A stretch of 44,234 nucleotides of DNA from Kagunavirus NRG857CP3, in sequence record OZ035734.1. One strand, 5' to 3'. A program made the position numbers and the translations under genes. This document shows positions 1,293 to 32,535 of the stretch, one piece after another; the stretch's first letter is position 1; the number at the start of each line of letters is the position of its first letter. The notes below the pieces were generated by a model, which was not told the DNA's origin, ran no database searches, and saw only the letters and a list, made by a program, of their open reading frames with translations.

Positions 1293-2774
1293 ATGTTAAC
1301 TATGAACGGTCAGAATCAGGGTGTTAAGACAAAACACCGGGAATGGCTGCATCACTTTGATAAATGGCAGAAGGTACGCCACGCGCTGGAAGGCGACCTT
1401 ATCCGCTACCTGCGCAACGTCGGGAAGAACGAACCGGACCCAACTTACGCGGCCCAGCGCCAGGATGAATACGAGAACGGCGCCATCTGCTACAACTTCA
1501 CCAAGCGCACCCTGTCGGGTATGGTTGGCTCAGTGATGCGCAAAGACCCTGAGCAGATTATTCCACCTGAACTGGAGTACCTGTTACGCAATGCCGACGG
1601 TTCCGGTGTTGGCCTGTGGCAGCACGCACAGGACACGCTGATGGAGATTGACTCGGTAGGCCGTGGCGGGTTGCTGGTGGACGCACCAGAAACAGCCGCA
1701 GCAACGGCGGCAGAGCAGAACGCGGGGTTATTAAACCCGGTCATCGCATTCTATACCGCAGAGAACATCATCAACTGGCGACTCACTCGCGTAGGGTCTG
1801 TTAACCGCGTTACGATGGTAGTGTTGCGCGAGGTATGGGAATATTCAGAACCCGGTGCTGAGTTTGAAACAAAGTTTGGTGAACAATATCGCGTCCTCGA
1901 CCTGATTGACGGGCGCTACCGCCAGCGCATATACCGCTTCGATGCGGAAGGTGGCGCGCAAGATGACGTAATCGAAATCTTCCCGGAACTGGGCGAACAG
2001 TTGCGCGGTAAAATCCCGTTCACGTTTATTGGCGCGAGCAATAACGATGCAACCGTCGATGACGCACCTTTGCTGCCGCTGGCAGAACTCAATATCGGGC
2101 ATTTCCGCAACAGTGCAGACAATGAGGAATCAAGTTTTGTAGTAGGCCAGCCGACTTTGTTCATCGCCCTCGGTGATAACATGAGCATGGAGCAGTGGAA
2201 AGAGGCCAACCCTCATGGTGTGCGCATGGGTTCACGTTCAGGCCACAACATTGGCTACGGCGGCAACGCGTTTCTGGTCCAGGCGGGAGAAAATAACCTG
2301 GCTAAACAGAACATGCTGGACAAGGAGAATCAGGCCATCCAGATTGGCGCGCAGCTTATCACACCTACACAGCAAATCACCGCTGAATCTGCCCGCCTGC
2401 AACGCGGCGCTGACACGTCCGTAATGGCGACTATCGCGCGTAACGTAAGCATGGCGTACACAGAAGCGTTGCGTTGGGTAGCAGCTATGCTTGGGCTACG
2501 CGAAGGCACGGAGATTGAGTTCAAGCTGAACATGGAGTTCTTCCTGCAACCGATGACCGCTCAGGACCGTGCGCAGTGGATGGCTGATATTAACGCAGGT
2601 TTACTACCCGCGACTGCTTACTACGCCGCGTTGCGTAAGGCCGGGGTAACTGACTGGACCGACGAAGAGATTACAACGGCTATTGAGGACGCACCTGTGC
2701 CGTTAGGTGCGGTTACTCAGGTAACTGGTGAGATTCCGCAGTCGGCACAACAGCAGGACGCCACCCAGCAATAA
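1293..2774 (+). CDS. portal protein
   Basis: 493 aa ORF immediately after terL, typical size and position; acidic Q-rich C-terminus. Confidence 0.75.
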   Translation: MLTMNGQNQGVKTKHREWLHHFDKWQKVRHALEGDLIRYLRNVGKNEPDPTYAAQRQDEYENGAICYNFTKRTLSGMVGSVMRKDPEQIIPPELEYLLRNADGSGVGLWQHAQDTLMEIDSVGRGGLLVDAPETAAATAAEQNAGLLNPVIAFYTAENIINWRLTRVGSVNRVTMVVLREVWEYSEPGAEFETKFGEQYRVLDLIDGRYRQRIYRFDAEGGAQDDVIEIFPELGEQLRGKIPFTFIGASNNDATVDDAPLLPLAELNIGHFRNSADNEESSFVVGQPTLFIALGDNMSMEQWKEANPHGVRMGSRSGHNIGYGGNAFLVQAGENNLAKQNMLDKENQAIQIGAQLITPTQQITAESARLQRGADTSVMATIARNVSMAYTEALRWVAAMLGLREGTEIEFKLNMEFFLQPMTAQDRAQWMADINAGLLPATAYYAALRKAGVTDWTDEEITTAIEDAPVPLGAVTQVTGEIPQSAQQQDATQQ

Positions 2775-2807
2775 AACTAAGGCCCCATAGGGGCCTTAGT
2801 TTTATTT
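2774..2807. terminator. bidirectional intrinsic terminator (palindrome AAACTAAGGCCCC-ATA-GGGGCCTTAGTTT)
   Basis: GC stem with A/T runs on both sides, between convergent portal (+) and moron (-). Confidence 0.7.
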
Positions 2808-3323
2808 AAATCGTACGGGCATTAGCACCATAAATGCTGAGTTTGAAAATGATATTTTGCATCCGCTGGTTTGATCCTGGAAATCGAAACGAGCAATTAC
2901 ATTTTTGTATGCCTTAGAAATCTTGTACGCGTCCGCTAAATACTGCATAGTGAATCCTATACTATCAACCACTCCTGGTGAGATGGACGCTATGCGCCTC
3001 CAGTCAGGAAAGTTTCCGTTTACAACATCTACCGGAAGTGTACATATAAGAGTACGACTATCGTCATAGAAAGAAACACTGCCGTTGGTGTGGTCCACCT
3101 CCGCGTAGTTAAATTTAGAAGGTTCTCTACCTTTGATGTCTATGAGAATCCCCTTCTCAACGTTTGTCTTCACATTGTCGCAGAACAACCTATGACCATC
3201 AGCAGAAACTATCAATCCTTCGGGGTCTATGTAAAAAGCATTCAAATAGTAGCGCACATCATTTTTAGCCCTGCAGATTTTCGCCCCTACATACGCAGGG
3301 AAAGTAATAACTGTAGTAATCAT
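2802..3323 (-). CDS. hypothetical protein (AT-rich moron, opposite strand inside structural module)
   Basis: 173 aa ORF on minus strand with own promoter-leader element and terminator; visibly lower GC than flanking genes. Confidence 0.55.
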   Translation of the reverse strand: MITTVITFPAYVGAKICRAKNDVRYYLNAFYIDPEGLIVSADGHRLFCDNVKTNVEKGILIDIKGREPSKFNYAEVDHTNGSVSFYDDSRTLICTLPVDVVNGNFPDWRRIASISPGVVDSIGFTMQYLADAYKISKAYKNVIARFDFQDQTSGCKISFSNSAFMVLMPVRFK

Positions 3324-3350
3324 TTTATGCCTCCTGTTTAATTTAACTGA

Positions 3351-3380
3351 ATAGTACCCTATTATATTGGTGTCTGCAAA
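3351..3380 (-). promoter_or_regulatory. sigma70-like promoter (TTGCAG-N17-TACTAT on minus strand) for moron 2802..3323
   Basis: Copy of conserved element CCAATATAATAGGGTACTATTC shared with promoters at 5237 and 14735. Confidence 0.5.
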
Positions 3381-3423
3381 TATTATTTTTATGCGTTACA
3401 CTGGCGATACTACAGGAGGGCCT

Positions 3424-4467
3424 ATGAGCTTACTAACTTCATTAATCAGCCACCAGATTTGGCTGCAGCGTACAGCATCCGGTGAAGTGAAAGACCTCGC
3501 ACCATTCATTCAGGAGATGCGTGATGAAATCAAACGGCAGGTGCTGCTATTTGGTGACGACGGGCGAAGCACCGCGCGGCTGAATAAACTGTTACGCGAC
3601 CTTGAAGACGCACTGACGGGGCTAACTGGCGACTGGCAAACGAAGCTGACAGAAGACCTTAAGGAGCTTGCAGCGTATGAGGCTGAGTGGAATGCGAAGA
3701 CACTCACGGCTAACGTTAATGCGGAATTTGTTACCCCGACCGCTGAACAGGTGTGGTCCGCCGCCGTGTTTCAACCACTGGCGATAAGCGAAAAGCCCGT
3801 TGACTTCACGAAGCTTATGGAAGGCTGGGGTGAAACGGAAGTAGCGCGCCTCGTTACCGGCGTTAAGATGGGCTTCGTGCAGGGCCAGACAACACGACAG
3901 ATTATCAAGAGCGTTGTTGGCAACGGTGGGCTATCGGATAAATCCGCCAACAACGCCGCCGTTGTAATCCGCACCGCTCTTTCGCACGTATCTAACGAAG
4001 CCCGCAACGAGACTTACAGGCAGAACAGCGACATCATCGAGAAATACGAGTGGGTGTCCACGCTTGACAGCCGTACCAGCACAATCTGCAAGGCCAGAGA
4101 CGGCATGACATGGGAAATCGGTAAAGGACCTATGCCGCCAGCCCATCCGAACTGCAGAAGTACCACTGCACCTGTAATCAGTTCAGAGTTCGACTTCCTC
4201 GACGCGGGCGCAAAACGTGCGGCTAAAGGCGCCGACGGTGGAACACAGGTTAGCGCGGATACCACTTACTACGAATTCCTGAAACAACAACCAGCGTGGT
4301 TTCAGGACCAGGCGTTAGGTCCGGTGCGGGGTAAGATTTTCCGCAACAGCGGTATATCACCAGAAGAGTTTCGCGTAATATCTGTAGATGGTTTCGGGAA
4401 TCCGCTCACGCTCAAGCAGATGGCGGAACTCGATAAACGTGTTGCTGATTATCTGAAAGGGGAATAA
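3424..4467 (+). CDS. head morphogenesis / minor capsid protein (SPP1 gp7 / Mu F-like placement)
   Basis: Position after portal; start chosen at ATG preceded by GGAGGG RBS (ORF track start 3367). Confidence 0.55.
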   Translation: MSLLTSLISHQIWLQRTASGEVKDLAPFIQEMRDEIKRQVLLFGDDGRSTARLNKLLRDLEDALTGLTGDWQTKLTEDLKELAAYEAEWNAKTLTANVNAEFVTPTAEQVWSAAVFQPLAISEKPVDFTKLMEGWGETEVARLVTGVKMGFVQGQTTRQIIKSVVGNGGLSDKSANNAAVVIRTALSHVSNEARNETYRQNSDIIEKYEWVSTLDSRTSTICKARDGMTWEIGKGPMPPAHPNCRSTTAPVISSEFDFLDAGAKRAAKGADGGTQVSADTTYYEFLKQQPAWFQDQALGPVRGKIFRNSGISPEEFRVISVDGFGNPLTLKQMAELDKRVADYLKGE

Positions 4468-4928
4468 TGATGGGCTTTTTCAAAGTAACTGATGTACCGT
4501 CGCGTCGCGTAGTCCAGTACGCCCGCGTGTCTGTCTCTGGCGAGAACGTGGTATTTATCGAAGACGAAAGTGTACTCGGTACACCAGTAGACGATATGCC
4601 GTTTGCGGATAAAACTGGCATTGCGCTGCCGGCGGCAGGTATGCTTTATGAGATTCCGTATCTGGCGGACGCTGGCGACGTATATTTCTCGGTGCAACCG
4701 CAGGACGCTGAACTGGCAGACGGCAGCGCAACTATCACGGTCGAAGTTAAGGCTGGCAAAGCACCATATGTGCTGACTTGGTACAAAGACGGTAAGGAAG
4801 TAGTAAACGCCCCGGAAGAGGCCTTGTCTCTGACGGTTAACGCAGTCGGTGAATACTTCGTTAAAGTTACTGATGCCGATGGTGTAGAGGCTGTTAGTAA
4901 AGCGGCGAAGGTTATTAAGCCTGAATAA
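4467..4928 (+). CDS. Ig-like domain structural protein (possible decoration protein)
   Basis: C-terminal motif YVLTWYKDGKEV typical of Ig-like I-set/Big domains; start overlaps upstream stop (TAATG). Confidence 0.45.
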   Translation: MMGFFKVTDVPSRRVVQYARVSVSGENVVFIEDESVLGTPVDDMPFADKTGIALPAAGMLYEIPYLADAGDVYFSVQPQDAELADGSATITVEVKAGKAPYVLTWYKDGKEVVNAPEEALSLTVNAVGEYFVKVTDADGVEAVSKAAKVIKPE

Positions 4929-4958
4929 ACTAAGGCCCCGAAAGGGGCCTTAGTTTCA
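4927..4958. terminator. bidirectional intrinsic terminator (AAACTAAGGCCCC-GAAA-GGGGCCTTAGTTT)
   Basis: Perfect palindrome, same family as 2774, 12279, 25044. Confidence 0.7.
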
Positions 4959-5207
4959 ATACCCAGTCTCTTGGGTTAAGTTAATCTCTTTATTCCAGAC
5001 GTTTCGGTCATACTTTTCACGAATCTGGCGCATACTTCTACCGAGCGCGGCGGATATAGACATATCCCCGTCTTCTTGCGCGTCCAGTTGCATCTGCTGA
5101 AGCTCAATATACGCCGAAATATCGCCGCGTAATTCGGCCTGTTCATACTCTTTTTTAAGAAAAGAACCAAGGTCCTGTACACGATGTTTTGCTGGTTTCG
5201 TAATCAT
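4956..5207 (-). CDS. hypothetical protein (moron)
   Basis: 83 aa minus-strand ORF with own promoter-leader and terminator; RBS GAGGAG. Confidence 0.5.
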   Translation of the reverse strand: MITKPAKHRVQDLGSFLKKEYEQAELRGDISAYIELQQMQLDAQEDGDMSISAALGRSMRQIREKYDRNVWNKEINLTQETGY

Positions 5208-5236
5208 TTCTTCTCTCCTCTTGTTGGTGTGAATGA

Positions 5237-5265
5237 ATAGTACCCTATTATATTGGGGTGTGCAA
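5237..5265 (-). promoter_or_regulatory. sigma70-like promoter (TTGCAC-N17-TACTAT, minus strand) with conserved leader ACACCAACAA
   Basis: Near-identical to elements at 3351 and 14735. Confidence 0.55.
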
Positions 5266-5287: not shown

Positions 5288-5333
5288 TTATTCCACCGAA
5301 TTGTAAATGTTGGAATAAACTATTCGAATAGTT
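5288..5333. promoter_or_regulatory. inverted repeat TTATTCCA-N15-TGGAATAA followed by perfect 16-bp palindrome AACTATTCGAATAGTT overlapping the -35 box
   Basis: Read directly from sequence; half-site AATAG/CTATT shared with promoter-spacer palindromes elsewhere. Confidence 0.5.
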
Positions 5334-5360
5334 GACTTTTCACTAAAAATATGCTAAGCT
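5332..5360 (+). promoter_or_regulatory. sigma70 promoter TTGACT-N17-TAAGCT with extended -10 TG
   Basis: Paralogous to promoter at 36064 (identical -35, spacer pattern and -10). Confidence 0.6.
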
Positions 5361-5567
5361 CCACCTGAGCTTGTGAAGTATGAACAAGCGACCGCGGCGC
5401 GGGCAGGTAACGGAGCGGGACGTAAGTCCTGAGTGTAGTTACGCCGACGCGTTCGGAAGGGCCATACTATATTGCTTGTGTAAAAAGTAACTGGTTTACT
5501 GGGATTACGCCGTTTCTATGTTTAAATGATAAGGACTAGCGCCCCGCTTTATGGCGGGGCTTTACTT
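5361..5567 (+). ncRNA. candidate structured leader RNA / small RNA, copy 1
   Basis: About 105 nt core roughly 75 percent identical to copy at 36093; conserved hairpin GCTTGT..ACAAGC; ends at terminator 5538..5567. Confidence 0.35.
5538..5567 (+). terminator. intrinsic terminator (GCCCCGC-TTTATG-GCGGGGC + TTTACTT)
   Basis: GC stem plus U-rich tail just upstream of spanin gene. Confidence 0.55.
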
Positions 5568-11109: not shown

Positions 11110-12278
11110 ATATGGCTACAACTCCTTTTAAGGGCGCGAATACCGCGCAATTCTATGTTGCGGAAACTACCCCGGGCGTAACCCCAGACAACCCTGTCTG
11201 GTCGCCGTTGCGTAACACGGGTGGCGTCCCTGCTATTACCCGCGACACGCTGACATCCAACGAGCTGGACGGCAGCCGTGAAACTACGTCCATCCGCACC
11301 GGTAACAAACAGGTTAGCGGGGAATATGCTATTGAGCTTAGCTCGAAAAGCCAGGATGACTGGTTGGCAGGTGCCTTAGGCTCTACATGGCAATCCGGTG
11401 TTTCTCTGTCCGGGCTGTCGATTACCGTCGCGCCTGCAGGTAAGACGTTCACCCGTGCTGATGGCAGCTTTATTACCGACGGCGTTGAAGTTGGCGACCT
11501 GATTGCGTTTACCGACTTAACCGGCGATAACGCAAAACCGTTTATCGTAACCGGGGTAAGTGCGACTGTTGTCACCGGTGCAGGTATTCAGCACACTCTC
11601 ACCACTGAGACGGTAACTACCGCAGCTAAGACCGGCGACAAACTGGAAACTGGTAGCCAGTGTAAAACGTTCTCTATTCTCACCTGGTACAAAGGCCAGT
11701 GCGGCGGGACTGACGCGTACGCACTAACCAAAGGCGTGGAAGTTTCTGGTTTTACCGTCGAGCAGGCCGTTAACGCGATGGTAACGGGCAGCTTCCCGTT
11801 CATCGGGCGCAGCCAGGAGATTCTCACCGAGCCGCCGTCTGGTTCTGATTTCTCCTCTGTTACGTTTGGTGACGAGCCATTCTCTTCGGTTGACGTTTCT
11901 GTGTTCGACGGTTCCACGCCGTTGCGTTGCGATAGCCTGACTATCACCAACGATAACAGCGCGTCTGCGCAGTTCGAACTCGGCAACACTAACGTGGCAT
12001 TTGTGGAGCGTAGCCGCGCGGCTAATACCTTCTCCATCTCCGGTAAGCTGTACGACATGGCTATGATTCAGAAGTTTATCAACGAGCAGCAGGTAGAGAT
12101 TAACTCTATTCTGGCGGGGGTAAACGGGGCTATGTCTTTCAGCCTGAAACGCGCGGAACTAACGGCGGTTACACCAGAGATTGGAGGACCTGAGTCAATC
12201 ACTCAGTCTATTGAGGGTCAGGCTACAGGCAACCAGTACCAGTCGTCTATCGTAATTCAACGTATCACCTACGCATAA
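11106..12278 (+). CDS. major tail protein (putative)
   Basis: 390 aa T/S/G-rich protein located upstream of chaperone pair and tape measure. Confidence 0.5.
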   Translation: MNMATTPFKGANTAQFYVAETTPGVTPDNPVWSPLRNTGGVPAITRDTLTSNELDGSRETTSIRTGNKQVSGEYAIELSSKSQDDWLAGALGSTWQSGVSLSGLSITVAPAGKTFTRADGSFITDGVEVGDLIAFTDLTGDNAKPFIVTGVSATVVTGAGIQHTLTTETVTTAAKTGDKLETGSQCKTFSILTWYKGQCGGTDAYALTKGVEVSGFTVEQAVNAMVTGSFPFIGRSQEILTEPPSGSDFSSVTFGDEPFSSVDVSVFDGSTPLRCDSLTITNDNSASAQFELGNTNVAFVERSRAANTFSISGKLYDMAMIQKFINEQQVEINSILAGVNGAMSFSLKRAELTAVTPEIGGPESITQSIEGQATGNQYQSSIVIQRITYA

Positions 12279-12308
12279 AACTAAGGCCCCAAACGGGGCC
12301 TTTTTCTT
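12279..12308. terminator. bidirectional intrinsic terminator (AACTAAGGCCCC-AAAC-GGGGCC-TTTTTCTT)
   Basis: Same palindromic family; between major tail gene (+) and island (-). Confidence 0.7.
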
Positions 12309-12861
12309 ACAAACCTAATTTTAAAGCAATGTCTACAACGTTCGATTTAACATCACCTGGTATGATGTATGTGTCGTAATCTTTTACACCGATAACATCA
12401 TACAGATACTCCCTGCTATCGCCGATGAACGTATAACCGTCCCGGTGCAAGCGAACAATTCGCACGTCATGCCCCGCGGCGACGATAGGGGCTACTTCGC
12501 TGGCGAACCCGCCATCGGACACTACAAAAACTTCGTCGCCGTCTGGCAAGTTTTCAGCAAGATACTTACCGAAATAATCATCGCCGAATACCGGTTTAAT
12601 GAACTGTTCAGAGATAGCAATCATGAATTGACGGCGAGACAAGCCATTAAGGAAACATTCTGGCTTTTCTTTCCGCGCTCGGTCGTCGTAGCCGTCGAGA
12701 AATTCGTGGTAAGCATCCGGGCCTAACGCGGCCAGAGCAATATTGAACATTGGATTCTTGAAACTGGTAGTTCCCTTCGCAAAGCCCATCTCTACCAGCG
12801 CCCTAGCAAGCGTGTCTTTCCCGCAACCCGCAGGGCCATTAAGAATAATTACCTTAGCCAT
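12307..12861 (-). CDS. P-loop nucleotide kinase, dNMP kinase-like
   Basis: Walker A GPAGCGKDT at N-terminus; later block FVVSDGGF...GHDVRIVRLHRDG resembles T4 gene 1 dNMP kinase pattern (recalled, not searched). Confidence 0.6.
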   Translation of the reverse strand: MAKVIILNGPAGCGKDTLARALVEMGFAKGTTSFKNPMFNIALAALGPDAYHEFLDGYDDRARKEKPECFLNGLSRRQFMIAISEQFIKPVFGDDYFGKYLAENLPDGDEVFVVSDGGFASEVAPIVAAGHDVRIVRLHRDGYTFIGDSREYLYDVIGVKDYDTYIIPGDVKSNVVDIALKLGL

Positions 12862-13346
12862 TATTTATCGCTCCCGTGTGATTTTAAGTGTGTAGAGTTC
12901 CCATTACAGTCGTATTCAGTAACCGCGTGAGTGGTTATACCGAGTCCGCGGAAATGCTTTATTACCGCCGGAGAGTCGTCGAACGCACACAAGATTCTTT
13001 CCAGCCCGATAGCGCGCAACACTTCTTCTTTAATTACAATGTCTTTTCTGTTGTCGTGTTTGCTGCGCATGATTAGCTGATAAAATTCGACGCGGTGGCG
13101 CTGCAACCACATTCTGGTTTCTTTTTCTGCGTCATCACTGCGGCCGGTTAAAATAATAACGGCATAGCGACGATTAAGGGCGTTACACAGTTCGATGTTA
13201 TCTTTAATCGGCGCATCATCTTTGCACGCCATGTTAAAGGGCTTCCATGCCCATGTTTCGTTGTAGTTATCTTTCGGCAACAGGTGTAAGCGATGCGTAC
13301 CGTCTGCTAATGTTCCATCTAAATCGAAAATAACAATATCTTTCAT
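12861..13346 (-). CDS. HAD-superfamily phosphatase, polynucleotide kinase 3'-phosphatase-like
   Basis: N-terminal DLDGTLA (DxDGT) motif, TGR, NRKDIVIKEEV and AFDDSP blocks resembling T4 Pnk phosphatase domain (recalled). Confidence 0.65.
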   Translation of the reverse strand: MKDIVIFDLDGTLADGTHRLHLLPKDNYNETWAWKPFNMACKDDAPIKDNIELCNALNRRYAVIILTGRSDDAEKETRMWLQRHRVEFYQLIMRSKHDNRKDIVIKEEVLRAIGLERILCAFDDSPAVIKHFRGLGITTHAVTEYDCNGNSTHLKSHGSDK

Positions 13347-14473
13347 CCCAGCATCTCCGGTGAAATAGTTAAACGTGCGACCTCGCCATATTCGGCGCTA
13401 TAAGTAATTACATTTGCACTACGGCCTGACATCCATCCGCCGCGAGAGGCGTAGGCGTCTTTAGCCGCTAAGGTGCGGTGCTGCTCAACAATCATGTTAC
13501 GGCTTTCCACAATCTTCTGATGGTGCAGGTGACCTACGTGAGCGTAGCTGTAAACACTCTCGCCGAACGCTTTGCGAAACTTGGCAATCATAACAGGCTC
13601 GATTGCGTCGAATCGTGCTTTATGGCCGTGGTGGAAAAACAGTGTCGTTTTGCCGTGTTGCACCATCTTATATACGTCCGGCGACGTATCGACAATCACC
13701 CGGCTGTCGTTTGCATATAAAGTTGTGAACATCTCTGCCAACCACACGGAGCCTACAGGGTCGTGGTTTCCTTGCACAACTAGCAGCTTCACGGTTTTAT
13801 GCTTAACCAGCGCCATATCTACAACACGGCGTACCATGCGAATCATGTAGCGGACAAGCTTCTGGTAGCGCGTGTCGGCGTCAAGGACGTGGCGTGACTC
13901 CGGTGTAACGGCGTCCAGACTATCGAAGTGTGCGAAGTCGCCAAGCAGGTTAATAACCCCTGTTCCCGCGTCCGGCGCTCTCTGGAATGCCGCGTCGAAC
14001 CATCGAGAGAACAGGTCTTCCGCAATTTTCATATCCCAGTCATCGCCGCTCTCGTCGGCCCACGCCAGCATACCGAGATGGAAATCAGACACGGTGTACA
14101 GGTTAAGCAGCTTATCGTCGCGTTTGGTACGGGCGGCCTTCACTGGGGCTACCGGGGTAATCTCCGACTTCATGCCTTCGATTACGGCTTTCATCAACTC
14201 AACCTGACGTTCGGCGTCTGTATCGGTCTTAACCCACTGCAACTTAGTGTTTCCGAACTCGTCCACCAGAGACGACGTACCCTTAATCTTGTATCCATCC
14301 GGCACAAGGTGGCTTACGTCGCGCCCGTGGCCTACACCCTTCTTAGCCAGCTTCGCTTTACGGATGCGGATAACGCGGTCTGAGATGCCGTATTTACGGG
14401 CGATATCGATATTCTTCATCCCGGCGTTCAATTCTTCCTGTAATTGCTCGTCGGTTATTTTCTTCTGGGCCAT
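13343..14473 (-). CDS. HTH domain fused to calcineurin-like metallophosphoesterase (Mre11/SbcD/CpdA-type motifs)
   Basis: Motifs DFH, LLGDFAHFD, QGNHD, FHHGH, HVGHLHH; N-terminal HTH-like segment NIDIARKYGISDRVIRIRKAKL; start set at ATG after GAGGAAG (ORF track 14578). Confidence 0.65.
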   Translation of the reverse strand: MAQKKITDEQLQEELNAGMKNIDIARKYGISDRVIRIRKAKLAKKGVGHGRDVSHLVPDGYKIKGTSSLVDEFGNTKLQWVKTDTDAERQVELMKAVIEGMKSEITPVAPVKAARTKRDDKLLNLYTVSDFHLGMLAWADESGDDWDMKIAEDLFSRWFDAAFQRAPDAGTGVINLLGDFAHFDSLDAVTPESRHVLDADTRYQKLVRYMIRMVRRVVDMALVKHKTVKLLVVQGNHDPVGSVWLAEMFTTLYANDSRVIVDTSPDVYKMVQHGKTTLFFHHGHKARFDAIEPVMIAKFRKAFGESVYSYAHVGHLHHQKIVESRNMIVEQHRTLAAKDAYASRGGWMSGRSANVITYSAEYGEVARLTISPEMLG

Positions 14474-14511
14474 GCTTACTTCCTCGTGTTTAGGATTTGT
14501 CTTATAGTAGC

Positions 14512-14703
14512 CTACTTCTCTTTCACGTTCGAGTTGCAAGCCCAGATTAAAATGAATACCCACGGCAACAGAACCCACCCTAGAAATAAGTTAGCCATGA
14601 ATATCGCCAGCTTTGCTTTATGGTTACGGAAGTAGGCAACTAAAAAAGGCGCAAAGTACGCGAGCAGTGCAAACAGGATTAAGGAAATCGGTAAACTGGA
14701 CAT
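14512..14703 (-). CDS. small membrane protein (two predicted TM helices)
   Basis: 63 aa hydrophobic ORF, first gene of island transcript, RBS GAAGGGG. Confidence 0.45.
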   Translation of the reverse strand: MSSLPISLILFALLAYFAPFLVAYFRNHKAKLAIFMANLFLGWVLLPWVFILIWACNSNVKEK

Positions 14704-14734
14704 TTTAAAACCCCTTCATTGTTGGTGTAAGCGA

Positions 14735-14763
14735 ATAGTACGCTATTATATTGGGGTGCGCAA
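14735..14763 (-). promoter_or_regulatory. sigma70-like promoter (TTGCGC-N17-TACTAT, minus strand) with conserved leader ACACCAACAA driving the island
   Basis: Third copy of conserved promoter-leader element. Confidence 0.55.
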
Positions 14764-14870
14764 GTAGTGTGTTAGAATAATTTTGCGCCTAGTGTCGCAC
14801 ACGAAAAGCGGGTGGTTCCCGTCTGGCGCATTTCCTTTAACCAGTAACCTCTTAACCAAAGGATTAAAGA

Positions 14871-25043: not shown

Positions 25044-25072
25044 AACTAAGGCCCCAAACGGGGCCTTTTATC
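25044..25072. terminator. bidirectional intrinsic terminator (AAACTAAGGCCCC-AAAC-GGGGCCTTTTATCT)
   Basis: Between convergent tailspike (+) and minus-strand replication operon. Confidence 0.7.
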
Positions 25073-25296
25073 TACTCTTCTGATAACTTTTCCAGTACAA
25101 ACGCCAGTTGCGCATTAGCGGCGTCTCTTTGCTGCCGTAGTCGTAGAACCTCTTCTTCAAGTTCCTTAACGCTCAAGGCAAGTTCAACTATCTCTGCGCT
25201 ACCCACAGTTTGGTACGCGCGCGGAGATATTTTCTTACCGCTTTCTAATACCTTAAAACCCAACGCGGCGATTTCACTAACACGACTGCTTCTCAT
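25072..25296 (-). CDS. hypothetical protein (coiled-coil)
   Basis: 74 aa, last gene of leftward operon. Confidence 0.4.
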   Translation of the reverse strand: MRSSRVSEIAALGFKVLESGKKISPRAYQTVGSAEIVELALSVKELEEEVLRLRQQRDAANAQLAFVLEKLSEE

Positions 25297-26723
25297 TTCT
25301 TACCTCGTCTCTTCATGTAATTAAGCAACTCTTCCTGGACGGATTTCTTCTCGTCCGTACGCGCGGCAACAACCTCGTCCAGCGTGTCTTTAGCGACGAT
25401 ATGATAGAGGAACACCGGGCGCTCGTGTCCAGCCTGTTTCTGGCGGACCGGGCCTATACGCTCGACAACCTGCAAATAGTGTTCAAGGTTCCAGCCTTGC
25501 GAGATGAACGCCAGATGATGGCCACCGTCCTGTAAATTCAAACCATGACCGGCTGACGCAGGGTGGACGCACAAAATCTCAATTTCACCACGGTTCCACG
25601 CTTCCATCTGCTTATTACCCTTAGCGCCTTTGGCAAACGCTTGTGCCTGCGGGAATCGCTTAAGGATGCGCTCCAGTTCGTGCTTAAACTGATAGGCTAC
25701 CAGTAACGGCGCACCCTGTAGTTCCTCAACAATGGACTCAAGCGCATCCAGTTTCGTGTCGTGCACTTTCTCCCAGTCTTTGGTTGCTTCGCCGTCTGGC
25801 CCTGACACATATACGGCGCCAGATGCAATCTGTAGGCACTTCGACGTCTTCGCCGCAGCGTTAGCCGCTTCGACTTCTCCGCTCTCCAGTTCCGCGAATA
25901 ACTTCTCCTCCATATCCATGTACGCCTGACGCGCTTTCTTCGGCAGGTCGATTTCAACCGGTACGATAATCGGCGCTTCGCATCCGAACCACTCGGCGGC
26001 GTCAATCGTGAGACTAATGTCCTTCATCTTCTGGTGAATTTCATTATCCGCGCCCGGGCGCGCATGATACTCACGCGCCATCGCCGATTTGCCTTTCTGC
26101 ACCGAGTTAAACCATCGGTCGGTGAATGCCGTGTACGACGACCCCAGGCGCTCGCCAGCGTCGATAAACCAGTTCTGGCCCCACAAGTCCTTGAGGCCGT
26201 TAGGCGATGGTGTGCCTGTCAGGTTAATGAAACGCTTAACCTTACCGAACGCCACCTTACTGAGCGCCTTTGCCCTTTTGCTACCGCCTGAACGGCTGCG
26301 GAACGATTTCAGCTTCGTGCTCTCATCGGCAACGATAACGGTAAAAGGCCAGTCGTCTTTGCCGTAGTAGTCAATCAGCCACTCGATAACTTCGTAGTTC
26401 GTGCACACCACGTTAGCATCCGACTCCAGCGCCGTGATGCGGCGCTTCTCTGAACCGGTCGCGTCAACAACACGCAGACACGGGAAGCCCCATTTCTCTT
26501 GTTCCGCGGGCCATGTACCGGATGCAACGCGCAACGGGGCGAGGATTAACACCCTGTCGTCATCATTAAGTTGGCCGTTGCGGAACAGTCGGTTGAGCAC
26601 CCACATCGTTGCGGAACTTTTGCCCGCACCCATCGAAGCCCAGATATTACAGCGCGGGTGTTGCAACATGAACGAAGTCATGAGCTTCTGGTACTCTCGG
26701 CGGATAAATTTAGACATACTCAA
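25293..26723 (-). CDS. SNF2-family ATP-dependent DNA helicase
   Basis: Walker A MGAGKS, IVADEST (DExx box), LTGTPSPN motif III. Confidence 0.8.
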   Translation of the reverse strand: MSMSKFIRREYQKLMTSFMLQHPRCNIWASMGAGKSSATMWVLNRLFRNGQLNDDDRVLILAPLRVASGTWPAEQEKWGFPCLRVVDATGSEKRRITALESDANVVCTNYEVIEWLIDYYGKDDWPFTVIVADESTKLKSFRSRSGGSKRAKALSKVAFGKVKRFINLTGTPSPNGLKDLWGQNWFIDAGERLGSSYTAFTDRWFNSVQKGKSAMAREYHARPGADNEIHQKMKDISLTIDAAEWFGCEAPIIVPVEIDLPKKARQAYMDMEEKLFAELESGEVEAANAAAKTSKCLQIASGAVYVSGPDGEATKDWEKVHDTKLDALESIVEELQGAPLLVAYQFKHELERILKRFPQAQAFAKGAKGNKQMEAWNRGEIEILCVHPASAGHGLNLQDGGHHLAFISQGWNLEHYLQVVERIGPVRQKQAGHERPVFLYHIVAKDTLDEVVAARTDEKKSVQEELLNYMKRRGKK

Positions 26724-26914
26724 TCCTTAACGTAGAGTACCAATTCCTTACGCCCGAACGCCGTAACGTTACCCGTTACGTCTTCAATTACCAGTTTACC
26801 GTTCGACTCGACGAACACCGTATCAACGGCAACAGGGCGACGGGTCTTAACGTTGAAAATCATGTCGCCAGGAACGATGTCACGTGCTGGTTTGCGGTCA
26901 TATTCGTGTTTCAT
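26720..26914 (-). CDS. hypothetical protein
   Basis: 64 aa, first gene after promoter 26948..26976. Confidence 0.4.
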   Translation of the reverse strand: MKHEYDRKPARDIVPGDMIFNVKTRRPVAVDTVFVESNGKLVIEDVTGNVTAFGRKELVLYVKD

Positions 26915-26944
26915 TTCTCAATTCCTTATATTGTTGGTGTGTGA

Positions 26945-27232
26945 CTAACTATAATAGTTCGCTATTAGGTCGTCAACCTGTTTAAACGAACCAACGACAA
27001 AAACATTCGCGCCGCGTTTACGCATCCGCGCATGCTCACGTAACTGGTGCGGGTCTGGCTTCGTGTTTTCGTCTTTCTTAACCTCAACGAACCAGACGAT
27101 GCCGCCGGGGAGAATTACCAGCAGGTCAGGAGCGCCCACTCTATTTTCGTAGGAAAGTTTACGAACGAGGCCCCCCAGGGCCTCGAATCGGTCTTTAGCG
27201 TATTTCTGCACACGCCCCTCAGGCGTACTCAT
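26945..27232 (-). CDS. VRR-NUC domain nuclease
   Basis: PD-(D/E)XK-type motif PDLLVIL...VEVKK. Confidence 0.7.
   Translation of the reverse strand: MSTPEGRVQKYAKDRFEALGGLVRKLSYENRVGAPDLLVILPGGIVWFVEVKKDENTKPDPHQLREHARMRKRGANVFVVGSFKQVDDLIANYYS
26948..26976 (-). promoter_or_regulatory. sigma70 promoter TTGACG-N17-TATAGT with spacer inverted repeat AATAG-CGAA-CTATT
   Basis: Consensus-like boxes read from minus strand; leader ACACCAACAA. Confidence 0.65.
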
Positions 27233-27317
27233 CTACGCACCCCTCACGTTTCGTATGCTCAACCCCGCAGCGCGGACAGATTAGGCAGTCTTCTTCGTAG
27301 AACCAGTAAATTTTCAT
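27219..27317 (-). CDS. small Cys-rich ORF (32 aa, CxxCxxC, possible zinc ribbon)
   Basis: Found by reading; overlaps VRR-NUC start; coordinates approximate. Confidence 0.2.
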   Translation of the reverse strand: MKIYWFYEEDCLICPRCGVEHTKREGCVDEYA

Positions 27318-27445
27318 TCAAGCACCCACAGATAAATCGCGATGAACATACCTAATACGGCGACCATCATGCCGTATTGGCCCTCGTGACAGTAGACACC
27401 GGCGGCAAACCCCGCCAGTACCGCAATACTCAGTTTACTTAGCAT
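27314..27445 (-). CDS. small hydrophobic ORF (43 aa, predicted membrane peptide)
   Basis: Found by reading; overlaps 3' end of polymerase gene; coordinates approximate. Confidence 0.2.
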   Translation of the reverse strand: MLSKLSIAVLAGFAAGVYCHEGQYGMMVAVLGMFIAIYLWVLE

Positions 27446-29687
27446 AACGCTTCATCTCCGCACCTTCCGCGACAAGAGGGAAGCCTTCTGCCCATTCCGG
27501 TAATTCGCACATCAATCGCCCCAGTTCAGCTACATTGTATTCCGGTAAATCCGGTGTCTCGCAGATAATTTCGTCATGTACGTGAAGCACAATCGGATAG
27601 CCGTTTGCTTCGACGTTCAGCAGCGCATTAGCCAGCAAATCACGGCACAGCGCCTGCGTGCAGTTTTCCACCAGTTTACCGGAGTAGGTGTACTGGAACC
27701 CCCACTGACGGGTTAACTGGTTTTCACCCTGGTACTTGATGCGCACGTTAGTTGACACCTTTCCATCTTCGTCTGTCTCTTTCGACACGCTTAACCCGAT
27801 GCCCGGGTAAGACATAACGCGACCCGACGGCAACGTCATGCGCAACCACCAACCAGCGACTTTGTTGCCGTTGTTGTCTGTCTCCACGTTACGCGAAAAC
27901 TTGACCCCCCGCGGCCCTGCAGTAAACTCTTTGCCAGGATTTCGGATAGCCGCCATTGCCGCGTCTTCAATATCCCGCCAGAAAGCTACGGTTTCCGGGT
28001 GGGACTCGCGCCACATACGCTTGATAGCGTCACAGGTACGCCACACTTTCTTATCAAGAATATACGAGGGTCTGTCATCCTTTTCGCCAGGACGTGGGGG
28101 GCGCTTAGCCTCCTGAATACGCGCCCACTCGTATCCGCGTGCGGTAGCAGCCCATATATGGTCAGGGAATGTCCCTTCCATTGTTTTTGCCATATCAACA
28201 AGGTTTAAGCCGAGGTTCTTAGCAAACTGAACGAAAGCACCGACACCGCCCGCGTAGCCGAGGCCCAATTCACAGGCTTTACCAATCTGGCGTAGGTCAC
28301 TACGGCTTTCGAGAATGTAATCAGGGTCCATGCCGAACATCTTACCCGCCGTTACGCAGTAAATATCCAATCCAGCACGGAAGGTATCCAGCGCGGTTTC
28401 TTCACCAGCAAGCCACGCAAGCCCACGGCCTTCGACGTTAGAGTAATCGGCGACGACAAACTTATGTCCGGATTCCGGTATGATGCAGCTACGCACCGTA
28501 GATGCCGTTAGTTTGGCTACATCAAAACGGCGATGTGCACGGCCTTTAAACAACAGGTCGATTCCGTAGGACAATGGGTGTGTTACTCGCCACCAGTCCT
28601 TCTCTGACATCCAGTCATAACGTACTTTCTTCTTTTTATTCTTCGGGTCGTCGTGATAGTACCCGCGCGCGAGGTTCTGCGGCTGGAAGCCTTTACCAGC
28701 AAATCGTAACGTACGCTTAGCTCCACCGTACTGGATGCAACCACGACGGCGGTCGTCAGACGAGCGGCCCAACAGCAGCGGGTTATATTTCGTTGACGCC
28801 GTGGACGCGGCCCCGAGGCGCATTTCGATAATCGTGCGGGCATCGTCAGGTAAATCATCGTCCGCCAACAAGTCATTCAGCGTTGACTTCTGTGCGTTGT
28901 GGATCCGGTGCGCAGGCGCAAGTTCACGCAGAATAGGCAGGAAATCTTTACCAGTAAGCGACCCGCCGTATTTGCGCTGGGCTTCCTCCTGTAACTGTGC
29001 CTTGTGCTTCTCCACGGCTTCAATCGCGGCTTCCGCCAGCGCGACGTCAACCTTAAACCCACGGTCGTTGATTAACTGGTCCAGTTCCAGTACGCGGTCC
29101 TCGAACTCGGAGTTACCCCAACGCGGTAGCTTATGGAATACTTCTCGCATCGCAGTGATGTCGCTCACGGCGTACTTGATAAACAAAGCCCACTCGTCTG
29201 GGTGTGTTTCGGCGGTGTAACGGCGGATTTTGTAGTTCTTCGGTGTCGGTTTAGAGAAACGCTTAATCAGTGCCTTGCCGCGTTTATCTTTCGCGTTGTC
29301 GGCGGATACGCCAAACACTTCGCACAATGCGTCAAGTGAACCCGGCAGCGCGTGACGAAACGCCCAAATCATCGTATCAATGGTGTTGCTTACAGGAATA
29401 TCAAAGCCCCAGCAATGTTTCATGATGAGACGATCGAACATTGAGCCGTTGTGCCACACCATCTTGATGCGACTGTTCGGTTTCACCAGACGGCGTAACG
29501 CGCGGTGCAAATCTCCCGGCATGTCGCTGCCGTCGGTGCAATCCCATACCTGTACAGGCTCGTCGTCAAAGGCATATGTGCAGATAAGCACTTCGGTTGA
29601 CGGGTGTTCGGCGTAAGCATAGGAACCGACTTTCTTTAAATCGATGTCGCTGTAGGTTTCAAAGTCTAAGAAGAGTAATTCTGGCAT
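27435..29687 (-). CDS. DNA polymerase I family (family A) with N-terminal 3'-5' exonuclease domain
   Basis: Exo I motif LFLDFETYS at N-terminus; 750 aa; C-terminal HVHDEI-type block. Confidence 0.85.
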   Translation of the reverse strand: MPELLFLDFETYSDIDLKKVGSYAYAEHPSTEVLICTYAFDDEPVQVWDCTDGSDMPGDLHRALRRLVKPNSRIKMVWHNGSMFDRLIMKHCWGFDIPVSNTIDTMIWAFRHALPGSLDALCEVFGVSADNAKDKRGKALIKRFSKPTPKNYKIRRYTAETHPDEWALFIKYAVSDITAMREVFHKLPRWGNSEFEDRVLELDQLINDRGFKVDVALAEAAIEAVEKHKAQLQEEAQRKYGGSLTGKDFLPILRELAPAHRIHNAQKSTLNDLLADDDLPDDARTIIEMRLGAASTASTKYNPLLLGRSSDDRRRGCIQYGGAKRTLRFAGKGFQPQNLARGYYHDDPKNKKKKVRYDWMSEKDWWRVTHPLSYGIDLLFKGRAHRRFDVAKLTASTVRSCIIPESGHKFVVADYSNVEGRGLAWLAGEETALDTFRAGLDIYCVTAGKMFGMDPDYILESRSDLRQIGKACELGLGYAGGVGAFVQFAKNLGLNLVDMAKTMEGTFPDHIWAATARGYEWARIQEAKRPPRPGEKDDRPSYILDKKVWRTCDAIKRMWRESHPETVAFWRDIEDAAMAAIRNPGKEFTAGPRGVKFSRNVETDNNGNKVAGWWLRMTLPSGRVMSYPGIGLSVSKETDEDGKVSTNVRIKYQGENQLTRQWGFQYTYSGKLVENCTQALCRDLLANALLNVEANGYPIVLHVHDEIICETPDLPEYNVAELGRLMCELPEWAEGFPLVAEGAEMKRYAK

Positions 29688-29703
29688 ATTATTTTCGACC
29701 CTT

Positions 29704-29732
29704 AGTAAAAAGGCCCAATGAAGGGCCTTAGT
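29704..29732 (-). terminator. intrinsic terminator on minus strand (AAGGCCC-TTCATTG-GGCCTTTTT)
   Basis: Stem-loop plus U tract downstream of SSB-like gene, upstream of polymerase start. Confidence 0.55.
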
Positions 29733-29748
29733 TAAATTGATTCAGATA

Positions 29749-30375
29749 TTAGCGGCGGCGACGTTCGCGGCGCGGTGCTTCATCTTCTTCGTCGTCTTCA
29801 AGGTCGTCGACACTTGCCGCGACGTTAGAACCGCCAAACGCTTTACCTTCGCCGACGTATTTAATCGCCAGCAGGTTAACACCGAGGACTTTGTATTTCT
29901 GGCTGAACCAGATTTCAACGCTTACGTTAGCGACGCAGCCGCTGTAAACCTGTTCACCTTCAATCTGTTCGCCGTCTACATTGAAGTCCTGCTCTACCTG
30001 AGTCTCACCTTTTTTAGAGGTTACAATCAGTGGCTGTTTCTGTGCCTTAGCCTTGAAGTAGAAGCCTTCCGGGAAGTCTTCAAACGGATTGTCGCGCTCT
30101 GCGATATCTTTAATTGCACATTTATCCATGTGCTTACCTTCGCCGTAGTTAGACTTCATCCACTTCTCGGCAGCAGCGGCTCCTAACGCTTCTTCAACTA
30201 CCGCGTAAACAGTGTCGTAGAGCGCATCGATTTGAGCATGGTCAGACGGCAGGATAATAGTTGCGCTGTACTGGCCTTTAGTGATTGAGCCATCATCGTT
30301 TTCACGGTCTTTTTCGCGTTCAAATACGTTAACCCATGCAGTGTTTACTTTACGCAGATTTAATTTCAGTCCCAT
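29749..30375 (-). CDS. putative ssDNA-binding protein (DUF2815-like), acidic C-terminal tail
   Basis: Acidic C-terminus DDLEDDEEDE then basic RRERRRR; paired with Cas4-like nuclease upstream (recalled family association). Confidence 0.4.
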   Translation of the reverse strand: MGLKLNLRKVNTAWVNVFEREKDRENDDGSITKGQYSATIILPSDHAQIDALYDTVYAVVEEALGAAAAEKWMKSNYGEGKHMDKCAIKDIAERDNPFEDFPEGFYFKAKAQKQPLIVTSKKGETQVEQDFNVDGEQIEGEQVYSGCVANVSVEIWFSQKYKVLGVNLLAIKYVGEGKAFGGSNVAASVDDLEDDEEDEAPRRERRRR

Positions 30376-30429
30376 CTTGATTTCTCGCTTTTCAGTTTAC
30401 TCCGGGAAGCTGCCCGGCCAGTGATTAGA

Positions 30430-30458
30430 ACTATAATAGTTAACTATTCAGGTGTCAA
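30430..30458 (-). promoter_or_regulatory. sigma70 promoter TTGACA-N17-TATAGT with perfect spacer palindrome AATAGTTAACTATT
   Basis: Consensus -35, near-consensus -10, 17-bp spacer. Confidence 0.7.
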
Positions 30459-30462
30459 CACT

Positions 30463-31719
30463 TTATTCCAGATCTTCTTCACTAACCTGATTCCACTCAG
30501 GACGTTTGTCGTCTGCCGTTGCGACACATGGCGCTCCGGGCTTACGAGTGATGAAGTCTTTCAGCTCTTCTTCCGGCACAACTTTAACAGCTTCGGTTGG
30601 CGTCATGAGCACTTCTTTAGTTAGCTTGTCGCCGTAGAGTTCTGCCACTTTCCCCGCGTCTTTCCACGCACGGTTGCCCATCTTACCTTCGACCAGCTTA
30701 TACCCCGGCACTTTCTTGCCAGAATGCAACGCGGCGGACATCGCTTTTTCAACCTTGTCAATGTGCTGGCGTAACAACGGCAGCTTCTCATACTCGGCGA
30801 CGAGTTGCCCTGGTGTCAGTTCCAGCGCAAAGTCGTCCTCCAGTTCCTCTGCCAGTACAGAATTAACCGTCTTCGTTCTGGCAGCGCACTGTTCTGAGAA
30901 CCTACACCACTGACAGCCATCGACCGACGGCTTAAAGTCTGACGCTTTCAGGTTCTTCTTACCACGGAAGTACGCGTCGAGTGCTAACAGTGCACGTTTC
31001 TGTGCGAACTTAGCGAACAGTTCCAGGCCTTCAACCGAGATGTCCCACTCCGACGCACCACCAGCGTACGGCTGGAAGATGACCAGACGAACAGTTGTTA
31101 TGTTATAACGTCTCTTGAGTCGGCGATAAACACCGAGAGCATAAAGCATAAGCTGCTTGTTTTCTTTCGCTTCGACACGATGCCGTCCGGTTTTCAGGTC
31201 GCCGATGATAAGCATGTGCTCGTCAGTGTTCGCCATCTCCTGAACGGCAACAAGGTCGGCGGTTCCGAACGTCTCAACGCCTTCATGACCCGGATGCAAT
31301 ACCTCAGTAAGATTGACACGCATCTCGAGCTTGGCATAAGTCGCAACGTCTATAATCGCTTTGCAGTAGTCGGTGTACTTGCGCACCTGCTCAATCATGT
31401 CCGCCGTAATCAGTACCGCGCCTTTCATCGGACTGATTAGTGCCTTAATCTGGCCTTTACCCTCATCCAGCACGTAAGCGCCGACTTCACGCTCTAACGG
31501 CAGCGCAGTACCTTTGATGTACTGGTTAAGGTGCATCTCAGCTATCGTGTGCATAGCTGTGCCTAATACCGCAGCTTTACCGGACGTGTTGGGAATATCT
31601 TTTTCACAGGCCAGTGACGCAGCACAGCTAAGCCACTTTTTAGCACCTGACGGTGACAGCAGGGCGTGCACATCGTTATTGCCGCCGCGTTCCTTTAAAA
31701 TCATACCCTGTTCTCCCAC
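30463..31719 (-). CDS. PD-(D/E)XK exonuclease, Cas4/RecB-like (DUF2800-like) with C-terminal Cys cluster
   Basis: C-terminal CQWCRFSEQC plus upstream Cys; nuclease-type motifs. Confidence 0.6.
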   Translation of the reverse strand: MGEQGMILKERGGNNDVHALLSPSGAKKWLSCAASLACEKDIPNTSGKAAVLGTAMHTIAEMHLNQYIKGTALPLEREVGAYVLDEGKGQIKALISPMKGAVLITADMIEQVRKYTDYCKAIIDVATYAKLEMRVNLTEVLHPGHEGVETFGTADLVAVQEMANTDEHMLIIGDLKTGRHRVEAKENKQLMLYALGVYRRLKRRYNITTVRLVIFQPYAGGASEWDISVEGLELFAKFAQKRALLALDAYFRGKKNLKASDFKPSVDGCQWCRFSEQCAARTKTVNSVLAEELEDDFALELTPGQLVAEYEKLPLLRQHIDKVEKAMSAALHSGKKVPGYKLVEGKMGNRAWKDAGKVAELYGDKLTKEVLMTPTEAVKVVPEEELKDFITRKPGAPCVATADDKRPEWNQVSEEDLE

Positions 31720-31973: not shown

Positions 31974-31987
31974 ATTTCCGACCCTCA

Positions 31988-32010: not shown

Positions 32011-32016
32011 AGATAG

Positions 32017-32514: not shown

Positions 32515-32535
32515 TTGTTTCTCTCCTCTCGTTTG

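Follow-up and report, generated by a model that had tools for sequence, protein, structure and literature searches.

Antisense inserts in the virion gene block of Kagunavirus NRG857CP3 as probable moron-type expression cassettes at three fixed slots

Two described systems come closest to the gene inserts analysed here: morons (the Hendrix/Juhala concept, reviewed in 'The moron comes of age', PMC3594210) and the promoter-early stem-loop (PeSL) cassettes of T4-type myoviruses (Arbiol et al. 2010, PMC2839356; Comeau et al. 2014, PMC4122927). The inserts lie in the 44,234-nucleotide sequence of Kagunavirus NRG857CP3 (OZ035734.1), hereafter the window, where three minus-strand islands (2802-3323, 4956-5207 and 12307-14703) break up the plus-strand block of terminase, portal, head, tail and tailspike genes (30-25043). 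We consider it probable that the three inserts are moron-type autonomous expression cassettes at three fixed slots, whose cargo is exchanged through crossovers in the boundary elements. This is a clean, well-populated case of a known mechanism that is not described as such for this group in the literature searched; there, the promoter motif and the terminators were reported separately. The slot loci are not discussed in the available portions of the BASEL paper.

As in morons, each insert joins its own promoter-like element to a gene and a predicted intrinsic terminator, lies between genes that are adjacent in relatives, has spread horizontally and deviates from its flanks in base composition. 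An antisense moron inside a late region is known from lambda bor. Unlike typical morons, the inserts have one promoter family and one terminator family common to all three slots, and some 28 cargo families reuse these slots. Unlike the morons of temperate phages, they have a virulent carrier, and expression from a prophage for the benefit of the lysogen is inapplicable because the annotations of two completely sequenced relatives, Bas76 and Schulenburg, include no integrase, and because the Kagunaviruses Golestan and fBC-Eco01 are reported to be without lysogeny genes (fBC-Eco01: PMC9825357). The same two annotations hold no transposase, no RNA polymerase and no repressor module for lysogeny. 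The moron concept applies here in the structural sense only.

With PeSL cassettes the inserts share repeated, conserved motifs of predicted sigma-70-like promoters (early promoters in PeSL) and GC-rich stem-loop terminators flanking variable open reading frames (ORFs; ORFans in PeSL), insertions, deletions and replacements between close relatives that are bounded by these motifs, and a proposed mechanism in which homologous recombination between motif copies would bring expression signals along. A PeSL is a single composite of ~100 bp, found in direct orientation in early hyperplastic regions and able to excise mini-circles, whereas the promoter and terminator here are separate, at opposite cassette ends 0.3-2.5 kb apart (e.g. 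3351-3379 versus 2770-2806), and the cassettes run antisense among the late structural genes of a 44-kb siphovirus. Direct repeats flanking them were not seen, which leaves no obvious mini-circle route. Our analysis extends the moron/PeSL idea, that of shared expression signals serving as recombination handles, to a small virulent siphovirus in which the breakpoints are unusually clean.

The window matches Kagunavirus (Guernseyvirinae) siphoviruses of E. coli, its best match being phage Sciku at ~92% nucleotide identity. Beyond the virion block lie a leftward replication operon (25072-36048) and rightward small ORFs from 36426; a tRNA search of the window found none. We compared 42 related genomes or contigs, with Bas76 and Schulenburg as the annotated relatives, and collected IMG/VR loci by anchor gene (39 by the Hoc-like gene, 11 by the clamp-like gene and 29 by the tail assembly chaperone gene), setting slot limits with tblastn anchors. 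The genes flanking the slots are 90-97% identical among genomes; flank identity was 90-94% for nearly all pairs in a comparison with slot-2 content, from which no relation can be read. The first two slots, between the portal and head-morphogenesis genes and between the Hoc-like and spanin genes, are laid out as follows.

2770-2806, both strands: terminator T1, a 17-bp palindromic hairpin, AAUAAAACUAAGGCCCC-AUA-GGGGCCUUAGUUUUAUU
2802-3323, minus strand: cargo 1, a 173-amino-acid truncated beta-sliding-clamp homologue (DnaN domains II-III region), GC content 0.41
3324-3350, minus strand: cargo-1 leader with Shine-Dalgarno sequence
3351-3379, minus strand: promoter P1, with TACTAT at 3351-3356, a 17-bp spacer and TTGCAG at 3374-3379; A/T-rich upstream stretch to 3388
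4927-4956, both strands: terminator T2, a 13-bp palindromic hairpin overlapping the Hoc-like stop codon
4956-5207, minus strand: cargo 2, an 83-amino-acid ORF, GC content 0.45
5208-5236, minus strand: cargo-2 leader with Shine-Dalgarno sequence
5237-5265, minus strand: promoter P2, with TACTAT at 5237-5242, a spacer and TTGCAC at 5260-5265; upstream AAACTATTTGTTTACG to 5281

The initial annotation of this DNA had suggested that the inserts were acquired or shuffled as cassettes, and had set beforehand, as a test, presence/absence polymorphism exactly at their boundaries. The relatives display just this, both gaps being empty in some of them and occupied by unrelated minus-strand genes in others. 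At slot 1, 25-26 of 41 loci have no insert and show a 70-bp gap that contains only the hairpin TAGCCCC-GAAA-GGGGCTT; in the 15 filled loci the slot measures 286-1474 bp and holds minus-strand ORFs in 13 different family combinations. The promoter element is present in 11 of the 15 and in no empty slot, and these 11 have an identical 45-nt junction to the head-morphogenesis ATG whatever their cargo. At slot 2, 9 of 40 loci and Sciku lack an insert, and the hairpin AAGCCCC-GAAA-GGGGCTTTTT runs straight into TTATTCCAGTTATTCCAC. The 31 filled loci hold at least 12 cargo families, and all but one of them (30/31) carry the promoter motif, which again occurs in none of the empty slots. The boundary between cassette and backbone at slot 2 falls just before TATTCCAGTTATTCCAC.

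Clustering of slots 1 and 2 together gave ~28 credible unrelated minus-strand cargo families. Annotated cargo includes an N6/N4 DNA methyltransferase, a KilA-N protein, a Vut_1-type transporter, a CapR/zinc-finger protein and the truncated beta-clamp homologue; most other families have no database match. Cargo 2 gave no family match in family searches, and its family also occupies slot 2 of loci L015 and L047. The GC content of cargo is 0.41-0.48 against 0.51-0.55 in the flanking genes; the constant metallophosphoesterase of slot 3 resembles the backbone in this respect (0.53). One family, F6, looks nuclease-like on a reading of its sequence and has no Pfam match.

Cargo has also moved between slots, in agreement with the shuffling proposed at the outset: the same genes occur in different gaps, with homology that ends at the terminator and the promoter. 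Three families (the clamp-like gene, the N6/N4 methyltransferase and a 57-60-amino-acid protein) are found in slot 1 or slot 2 depending on the genome. The window, L039 and Sciku carry the clamp-like gene in slot 1, nine other loci carry it in slot 2, and in no genome does it occur twice; among the 11 surveyed genomes with this gene, the split between slots 1 and 2 is two to nine. When the clamp cassette in slot 1 of the window is aligned with that in slot 2 of Schulenburg, a single 610-bp match of 89% identity results (window 2779-3388), running from the left arm of the terminator (2779) to nine bases past the -35 (3388); between these two loci there is no homology beyond those limits. Furthermore, T2 is chimeric. 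From the sequence upstream of it through the left arm to the GAAA loop it matches the empty-slot type (as in L021); its right arm and tail are of the type found with cargo family F3, as in the same-cargo genome L047, and a crossover is thereby placed inside the hairpin. Three leader types combine freely with cargo, the clamp gene having been seen with two of them.

The mechanism that we infer is homologous recombination at the 25-60-bp boundary repeats, rather than only in the flanking genes. Each unit would consist of a sigma-70-type host promoter from the phage's own family, a Shine-Dalgarno leader, one to four cargo genes and a bidirectional hairpin. Co-infecting phages would swap cargo by recombination, occasionally between slots, with one crossover inside the conserved terminator stem and the other in the conserved promoter or leader. 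Since such crossovers lie within the signals, an arriving gene would at once be expressed and insulated. The relatives' genomes encode a Gp2.5-like annealing protein and an exonuclease, which may aid recombination over short homologies.

The promoter-like element lies at 3348-3380, 5234-5265 and 14732-14763, at the 5' end of each minus-strand insert as the initial annotation had it. On the minus strand it reads TTGC(A/G)(C/G)-N17-TACTAT; a leader of 20-25 nt and a Shine-Dalgarno sequence come next, before the island's first ATG (3323, 5207 and 14703). The TTGCAC-N17-TACTAT element stands 45-60 nt 5' of the ATG, in filled slots only, and matches the consensus moderately. Both this element and the terminator palindromes exceed chance by far: the promoter 16-mer has 4 matches at up to three mismatches against 0.3 expected, and the terminator motif has 4 in the window and none in 100 shuffled windows. 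Parts of the earlier description needed amendment. The promoter is common to all three inserts, whereas the leader ACACCAACAA (plus strand TTGTTGGTGT) is common to the 5235 and 14733 copies and absent from the 3349 copy, which has a leader (CTGTTTAATTTAAC) and a -35 region (GGTGTCTGCAA) of its own. The boundary element is indeed reused at the inserts, but it is not specific to them, members of the same family standing before presumed early ORFs. The further members are listed here.

36372-36400, plus strand: class A promoter, TTGCAC-N17-TACTAT, before the first rightward small ORF (36426)
37859-37887, plus strand: class A promoter with leader, before ORF 37919-38644
26948-26976, minus strand: class B promoter, TTGACG-N17-TATAGT, palindrome in the spacer
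30430-30458, minus strand: class B sister copy
32546-32574, minus strand: class B sister copy
43289-43317, plus strand: class B sister copy

The family has nine copies genome-wide and also heads presumed early operons. Five are of class A (TTGCAC-N17-TACTAT, with a palindrome over the -10), at 3379, 5265 and 14763 on the minus strand and 36372 and 37859 on the plus strand, and four of class B (TTGACA-N17-TATAGT, with the palindrome in the spacer), at 26976, 30458 and 32574 (minus) and 43289 (plus). Copies are 75-83% identical across 54-57 nt, leaders and non-consensus positions included; 37859-37912 and 5212-5265, for example, share 83% over 54 nt with the leader. The 14-bp palindrome AATAG-N4-CTATT occurs eight times (3350, 5236, 14734, 26953, 30435, 32551, 36388 and 37875) against 0.08 expected, always within an intergenic promoter element; copies with one mismatch lie at 32595 and 43299, the latter in the class B promoter at 43289. 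At P1 it reads AATAG-TACC-CTATT (3350-3363) and at P3, the promoter of slot 3, AATAG-TACG-CTATT (14734-14747). In distant relatives the corresponding promoters contain other palindromes. We rejected the idea that the cassette promoter is bidirectional and also reads on the plus strand, as there is no plus-strand -35 at the right distance at 3349, 5235 or 14733. The number of sites flagged by a simple promoter/terminator scanner did not exceed that in shuffles.

The core of this element is the PHIRE motif tgAATAGTa-ccTATTat-T, reported in seven copies in Kagunavirus fBC-Eco01 and assigned by its authors to a phage-encoded RNA polymerase; the available text of that report does not link it to variable cassettes, slots or terminators (PMC9825357). 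We give next to no weight to a phage-polymerase promoter, for which this assignment speaks. Recognition by the host polymerase is the better reading because no RNA polymerase gene appears among the annotations of completely sequenced close relatives. In addition, the motif lies within a TTG...-N17-TA...T arrangement suitably spaced from start codons, and class B copies have a perfect TTGACA together with TATAGT, matching the sigma-70 consensus at 5-6 of six positions in the -35 and five of six in the -10 with a 17-bp spacer. The cassette promoter is probably early, given that the element also heads the rightward small-ORF operons.

The hairpins that close the inserts belong to one family, AAGGCCCC-N3-5-GGGGCCTT, the four window copies of which lie at 2779-2797, 4932-4951, 12283-12302 and 25048-25067. 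T1 overlaps the portal stop codon and adjoins the 3' end of the clamp-like ORF; in T1 and T2 a flanking A-tract and T-tract lengthen the stem to 17 and 13 bp, respectively. The members outside slots 1 and 2 are as follows.

12276-12311 (stem 12283-12302), both strands: terminator T3, at the junction of the tail tube gene and the slot-3 operon
25044-25071, both strands: terminator T4, where the tailspike gene (plus) converges with the leftward replication operon (minus)
29707-29733 (stem 29710-29729), minus strand: degenerate fifth member, inside the leftward operon

All five fold stably on both strands (-13 to -26 kcal/mol, z -2.7 to -6.6), T1 at -25.9 kcal/mol on the plus and -26.4 on the minus strand, and on either strand their tails are T-rich. 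Judged by sequence and folding, the cargo-strand hairpins reach -15 to -26 kcal/mol and end in U-rich tails. They would act as bidirectional intrinsic terminators, a reading we adopt because each hairpin also closes the upstream plus-strand gene. Structurally they do not differ from other bidirectional intrinsic terminators: a GC-rich stem-loop is flanked by an A-tract and a T-tract, giving a U-tract on each strand, and stands between convergent ORFs. The annotation of Schulenburg likewise places bidirectional terminators on both strands at the homologous sites, that of T4 included. T4 is a module boundary with no insert. The suggestion that the palindromes insulate convergent late transcription fits these sequence features. 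What is unusual is the occurrence of one sequence family at five sites, with stems fixed and loops very variable. The stem AGGCCCC/GGGGCCT is kept in 44 of 46 filled slots, while filled slot-2 terminators show 16 distinct loops among 31 copies; in empty slots the hairpin has a GAAA loop in 31 of 33 cases. More generally, we infer from these motifs that the boundary elements would promote and terminate transcription of the cassettes.

Hairpin repeats around short single genes at a fixed site recall integron cassettes, a superficial likeness that raises the question of whether the palindromes or promoter motifs are sites for a dedicated enzyme, be it of integron/attC type, a transposase or a homing endonuclease. 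Some relatives do have HNH endonuclease genes inserted close by, and a few cargo genes look nuclease-like (F6). We regard such an enzyme as very unlikely. Unlike integron cassettes, each cassette here has its own promoter, there are no attI or attC cores, and neither integrase nor transposase is annotated in the two complete relative genomes. Hairpin loops and flanks vary freely and only the GC stem is conserved, without a core site; the HNH insertions are on the plus strand and lack cassette boundaries; and the junctions resemble simple crossovers in shared sequence.

Slot 3, between the tail tube and tail assembly chaperone genes, holds a longer insert.

12307-14703, minus strand: slot-3 operon of four genes
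14704-14763, minus strand: leader with Shine-Dalgarno sequence and promoter P3, with TACTAT at 14735-14740 and TTGCGC at 14758-14763
14512-14703, minus strand: Imm-like superinfection immunity protein, first in transcription order
13343 to ~14473, minus strand: metallophosphoesterase, second
12861-13346, minus strand: HAD/PNKP-type phosphatase, third
12307-12861, minus strand: P-loop kinase, fourth and terminator-proximal

As to invariant core content, which the initial annotation had set against a cassette origin, none is seen at slots 1 and 2; slot 3 is a partial exception, part core and part variable. Only its terminator-proximal genes vary, the kinase and HAD phosphatase being replaced by ORFs of 57-238 amino acids in many genomes. 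Distant Guernseyvirinae contigs keep slot 3 and the same terminator family, with inserts of 350-990 bp behind other promoters that contain palindromes of their own. The kinase and HAD phosphatase, present in some genomes only, are separate genes that resemble a split polynucleotide kinase-phosphatase.

Several observations weigh against fully autonomous, travelling cassettes. All Kagunavirus loci examined have the metallophosphoesterase, and nearly all have the Imm-like gene, which had no hit in Bas76. Four filled slot-1 loci have unrelated promoters, and the terminator sequence that is shared is short, ~8+8 bp of stem with its tails. In class A promoters, only three of six positions of the -35 (TTGCAC) and four of six of the -10 (TACTAT) agree with the sigma-70 consensus, at a 17-bp spacing; an overlapping TATAAT has no -35, and a simple sigma-70 consensus scanner did not flag these promoters. 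The one Kagunavirus transcriptome found, a time course of K1B4 with multi-cycle sampling that classes only four genes as early, is too coarse to time the cassette genes (PMC12645636). Finally, the -35 and upstream part of the promoter is specific to the slot whatever the cargo (GGTGTCTGCAAATATTATT in slot 1, GGGGTGTGCAAACTATTTA in slot 2), which makes the promoter partly slot resident and not a travelling part of the cassette.

This last point speaks for a different account, in which the slots are permissive inter-operon gaps with signals that reside in the backbone and have no causal role in mobility, and cargo turns over through homologous recombination in the flanking genes or selected illegitimate recombination. 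Slots 2 and 3 do lie between operons; no convincing plus-strand promoter was found to separate slot 1 from the head-morphogenesis gene. In slot 1 the -35/upstream variants and the 45-nt junction stay the same under changing cargo, slot 2 behaves likewise, the flanks, 90-97% identical, offer ample homology for same-slot exchange, and the hairpin is already present in empty slots. The promoter, however, is wholly absent from empty slots. Moreover, three cargo families occupy two slots with unrelated flanks, the homology of the clamp cassettes ends in the terminator and just past the promoter, one terminator is chimeric, and leaders are shuffled against cargo. Backbone-resident signals would explain same-slot swaps and not inter-slot transfers, and we judge this account unlikely. 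For exchange at the boundary elements, the slot-specific -35 makes one founding insertion per slot, followed by repeated replacement of cargo, the most economical history.

At the other extreme, the repeats could be the functional convergence of ordinary signals of vertically inherited genes, with nothing mobile. Promoters and intrinsic terminators are constrained in sequence, and slot 3 has one gene that is constant within the genus (the metallophosphoesterase) and another that is nearly so (the Imm-like gene). Convergence is effectively refuted by presence/absence and replacement polymorphism among genomes with flanks >90% identical, by promoter identity that extends to non-consensus positions, and by a cargo composition unlike that of the backbone.

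The implications for this group of phages are practical as well as evolutionary. The slots are hot spots for accessory genes and define a search space for anti-defence, exclusion and host-takeover functions. They are also natural landing pads, equipped with promoter, ribosome-binding site and terminator, that tolerate 0.2-2.5 kb of foreign DNA, a tolerance useful for engineering Kagunavirus therapeutic phages. Published annotation is revised at three points: the assignment of the PHIRE motif, the labels of the clamp-like cargo and a 36-amino-acid ORF beside slot 2. The Sciku and Schulenburg annotations call cargo 1 'DNA polymerase III sliding clamp', and it also has the database name 'RusA-like resolvase'; for this 173-amino-acid protein, both labels overstate what is known. 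A homologue 45% identical to it, in an unrelated phage lineage (L013/L014, 5992-6513), likewise stands alone and antisense between a TTGACA/TATACT promoter and a palindromic terminator of its own, which favours the cassette reading.

Other features of the region around slot 1 deserve mention. At L028 (3485-4958, IMGVR_UViG_3300045988_039442) slot 1 holds three genes, among them a Vut_1 (YhhQ-like) transporter and a 244-amino-acid protein without Pfam match; this cargo may be a nucleobase or DNA-modification module. Between the head-morphogenesis and Hoc-like genes, six loci (L003, at 4393-5145, L024, L044, L045, L048 and L049) carry an insertion of 753-773 bp, 'slot 1b', that is absent from the window. 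Its plus-strand ORF of 183-207 amino acids is annotated as an HNH endonuclease in Schulenburg (L003), and its lack of promoter and terminator boundaries points to a different, homing-type mode of insertion. The head-morphogenesis protein (SPP1 gp7-like, 3425-4467) is only 54-70% identical to that of most Kagunavirus relatives surveyed, whereas the neighbouring portal and Hoc-like proteins usually reach 90-97%; judged by sequence, the gene is itself a mosaic allele common to Sciku-like phages.

Late transcription would have to pass the cassette terminators, and an antitermination-type layout in the plus-strand backbone offers a lead only as to how. The relevant elements are these.

5332-5563, plus strand: copy A of a backbone element beside slot 2, comprising promoter, leader and terminator before the spanin gene
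36064-36212, plus strand: copy B of the promoter and leader, without a clear terminator
14751-14778, plus strand: extended -10 promoter (TTGGGG at 14751-14756, TGt at 14770-14772, TAGAAT at 14773-14778), back to back with P3
14782-14846, plus strand: int-alpA-type RNA (RF02996), before the tail assembly chaperone gene

The copy-A promoter has an extended -10 (TTGACT at 5332-5337, TGc at 5352-5354 and TAAGCT at 5355-5360, N17 spacing); within TGn-TAAGCT, the 'n' is the sole base that varies across genomes. It is followed by a GC-rich, structured leader of ~110 nt (5366-5480), almost invariant over ~30 related contigs, and a promoter-proximal terminator (5541-5563). Two compensatory pairs distinguish copies A and B, as does an apical hairpin that is entirely different, and an Rfam search with both promoter-plus-leader copies found nothing above noise. 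Sciku, Schulenburg and Bas76 have the 36-amino-acid ORF annotated at copy A; since this ORF is not conserved in copy B, the 'hypothetical protein' is probably a leader RNA and not a gene. Abutting the -35 of the 5332 promoter, CTATTCGAATAG (5320-5331) presents the half-sites of the AATAG-N4-CTATT palindrome in inverted order; it is found in all copy-A sequences and absent from copy B.

The int-alpA RNA matches RF02996 over its full length (36.6 bits against a gathering threshold of 35.8), the sole significant Rfam match, and is kept in distant Guernseyvirinae (right ends of slot 3 in L077-L082); on reading, the changes in both inner hairpins appear compensatory. It ends in a stem and U-run and so resembles a promoter-proximal terminator. 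Lambda PR'/tR'-Q and the put-type RNA antiterminators use the same layout of promoter, short structured RNA and terminator. AlpA, too, exerts antitermination control with this arrangement (PMC7969949, PMC9371919). The excisionase-type helix-turn-helix (HTH) protein of the window (35788-36048) showed no sequence link to the solved AlpA antiterminator, and its matches are generic (HTH_17/excisionase in Pfam, NCBIfam and PHROG).

As a tentative possibility, which we regard as rather unlikely, these elements could form a two-tier design in which a repressor on the palindrome shuts off the antisense cassettes and an antiterminated polymerase passes their terminators. AATAG-N4-CTATT looks like an operator, and a Cro-like HTH_3 protein is the obvious candidate binder; this small phage repressor would silence the cassettes as infection proceeds. 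At least two plus-strand virion units (5332-5563 and 14751-14850) would start with an extended -10 promoter, a structured leader and a promoter-proximal terminator, and polymerase antiterminated there would cross the 'bidirectional' terminators, so that only unmodified early or antisense transcripts would be stopped.

The Cro-like gene itself (32639-32854, plus strand) is flanked by two of the palindrome sites. It is a single opposite-strand unit inside the leftward operon and is closed by a hairpin and T-run (AGGGGCTTAATGCCCCTTTCTTTTT, 32846-32870), a layout that mirrors the cassette design.

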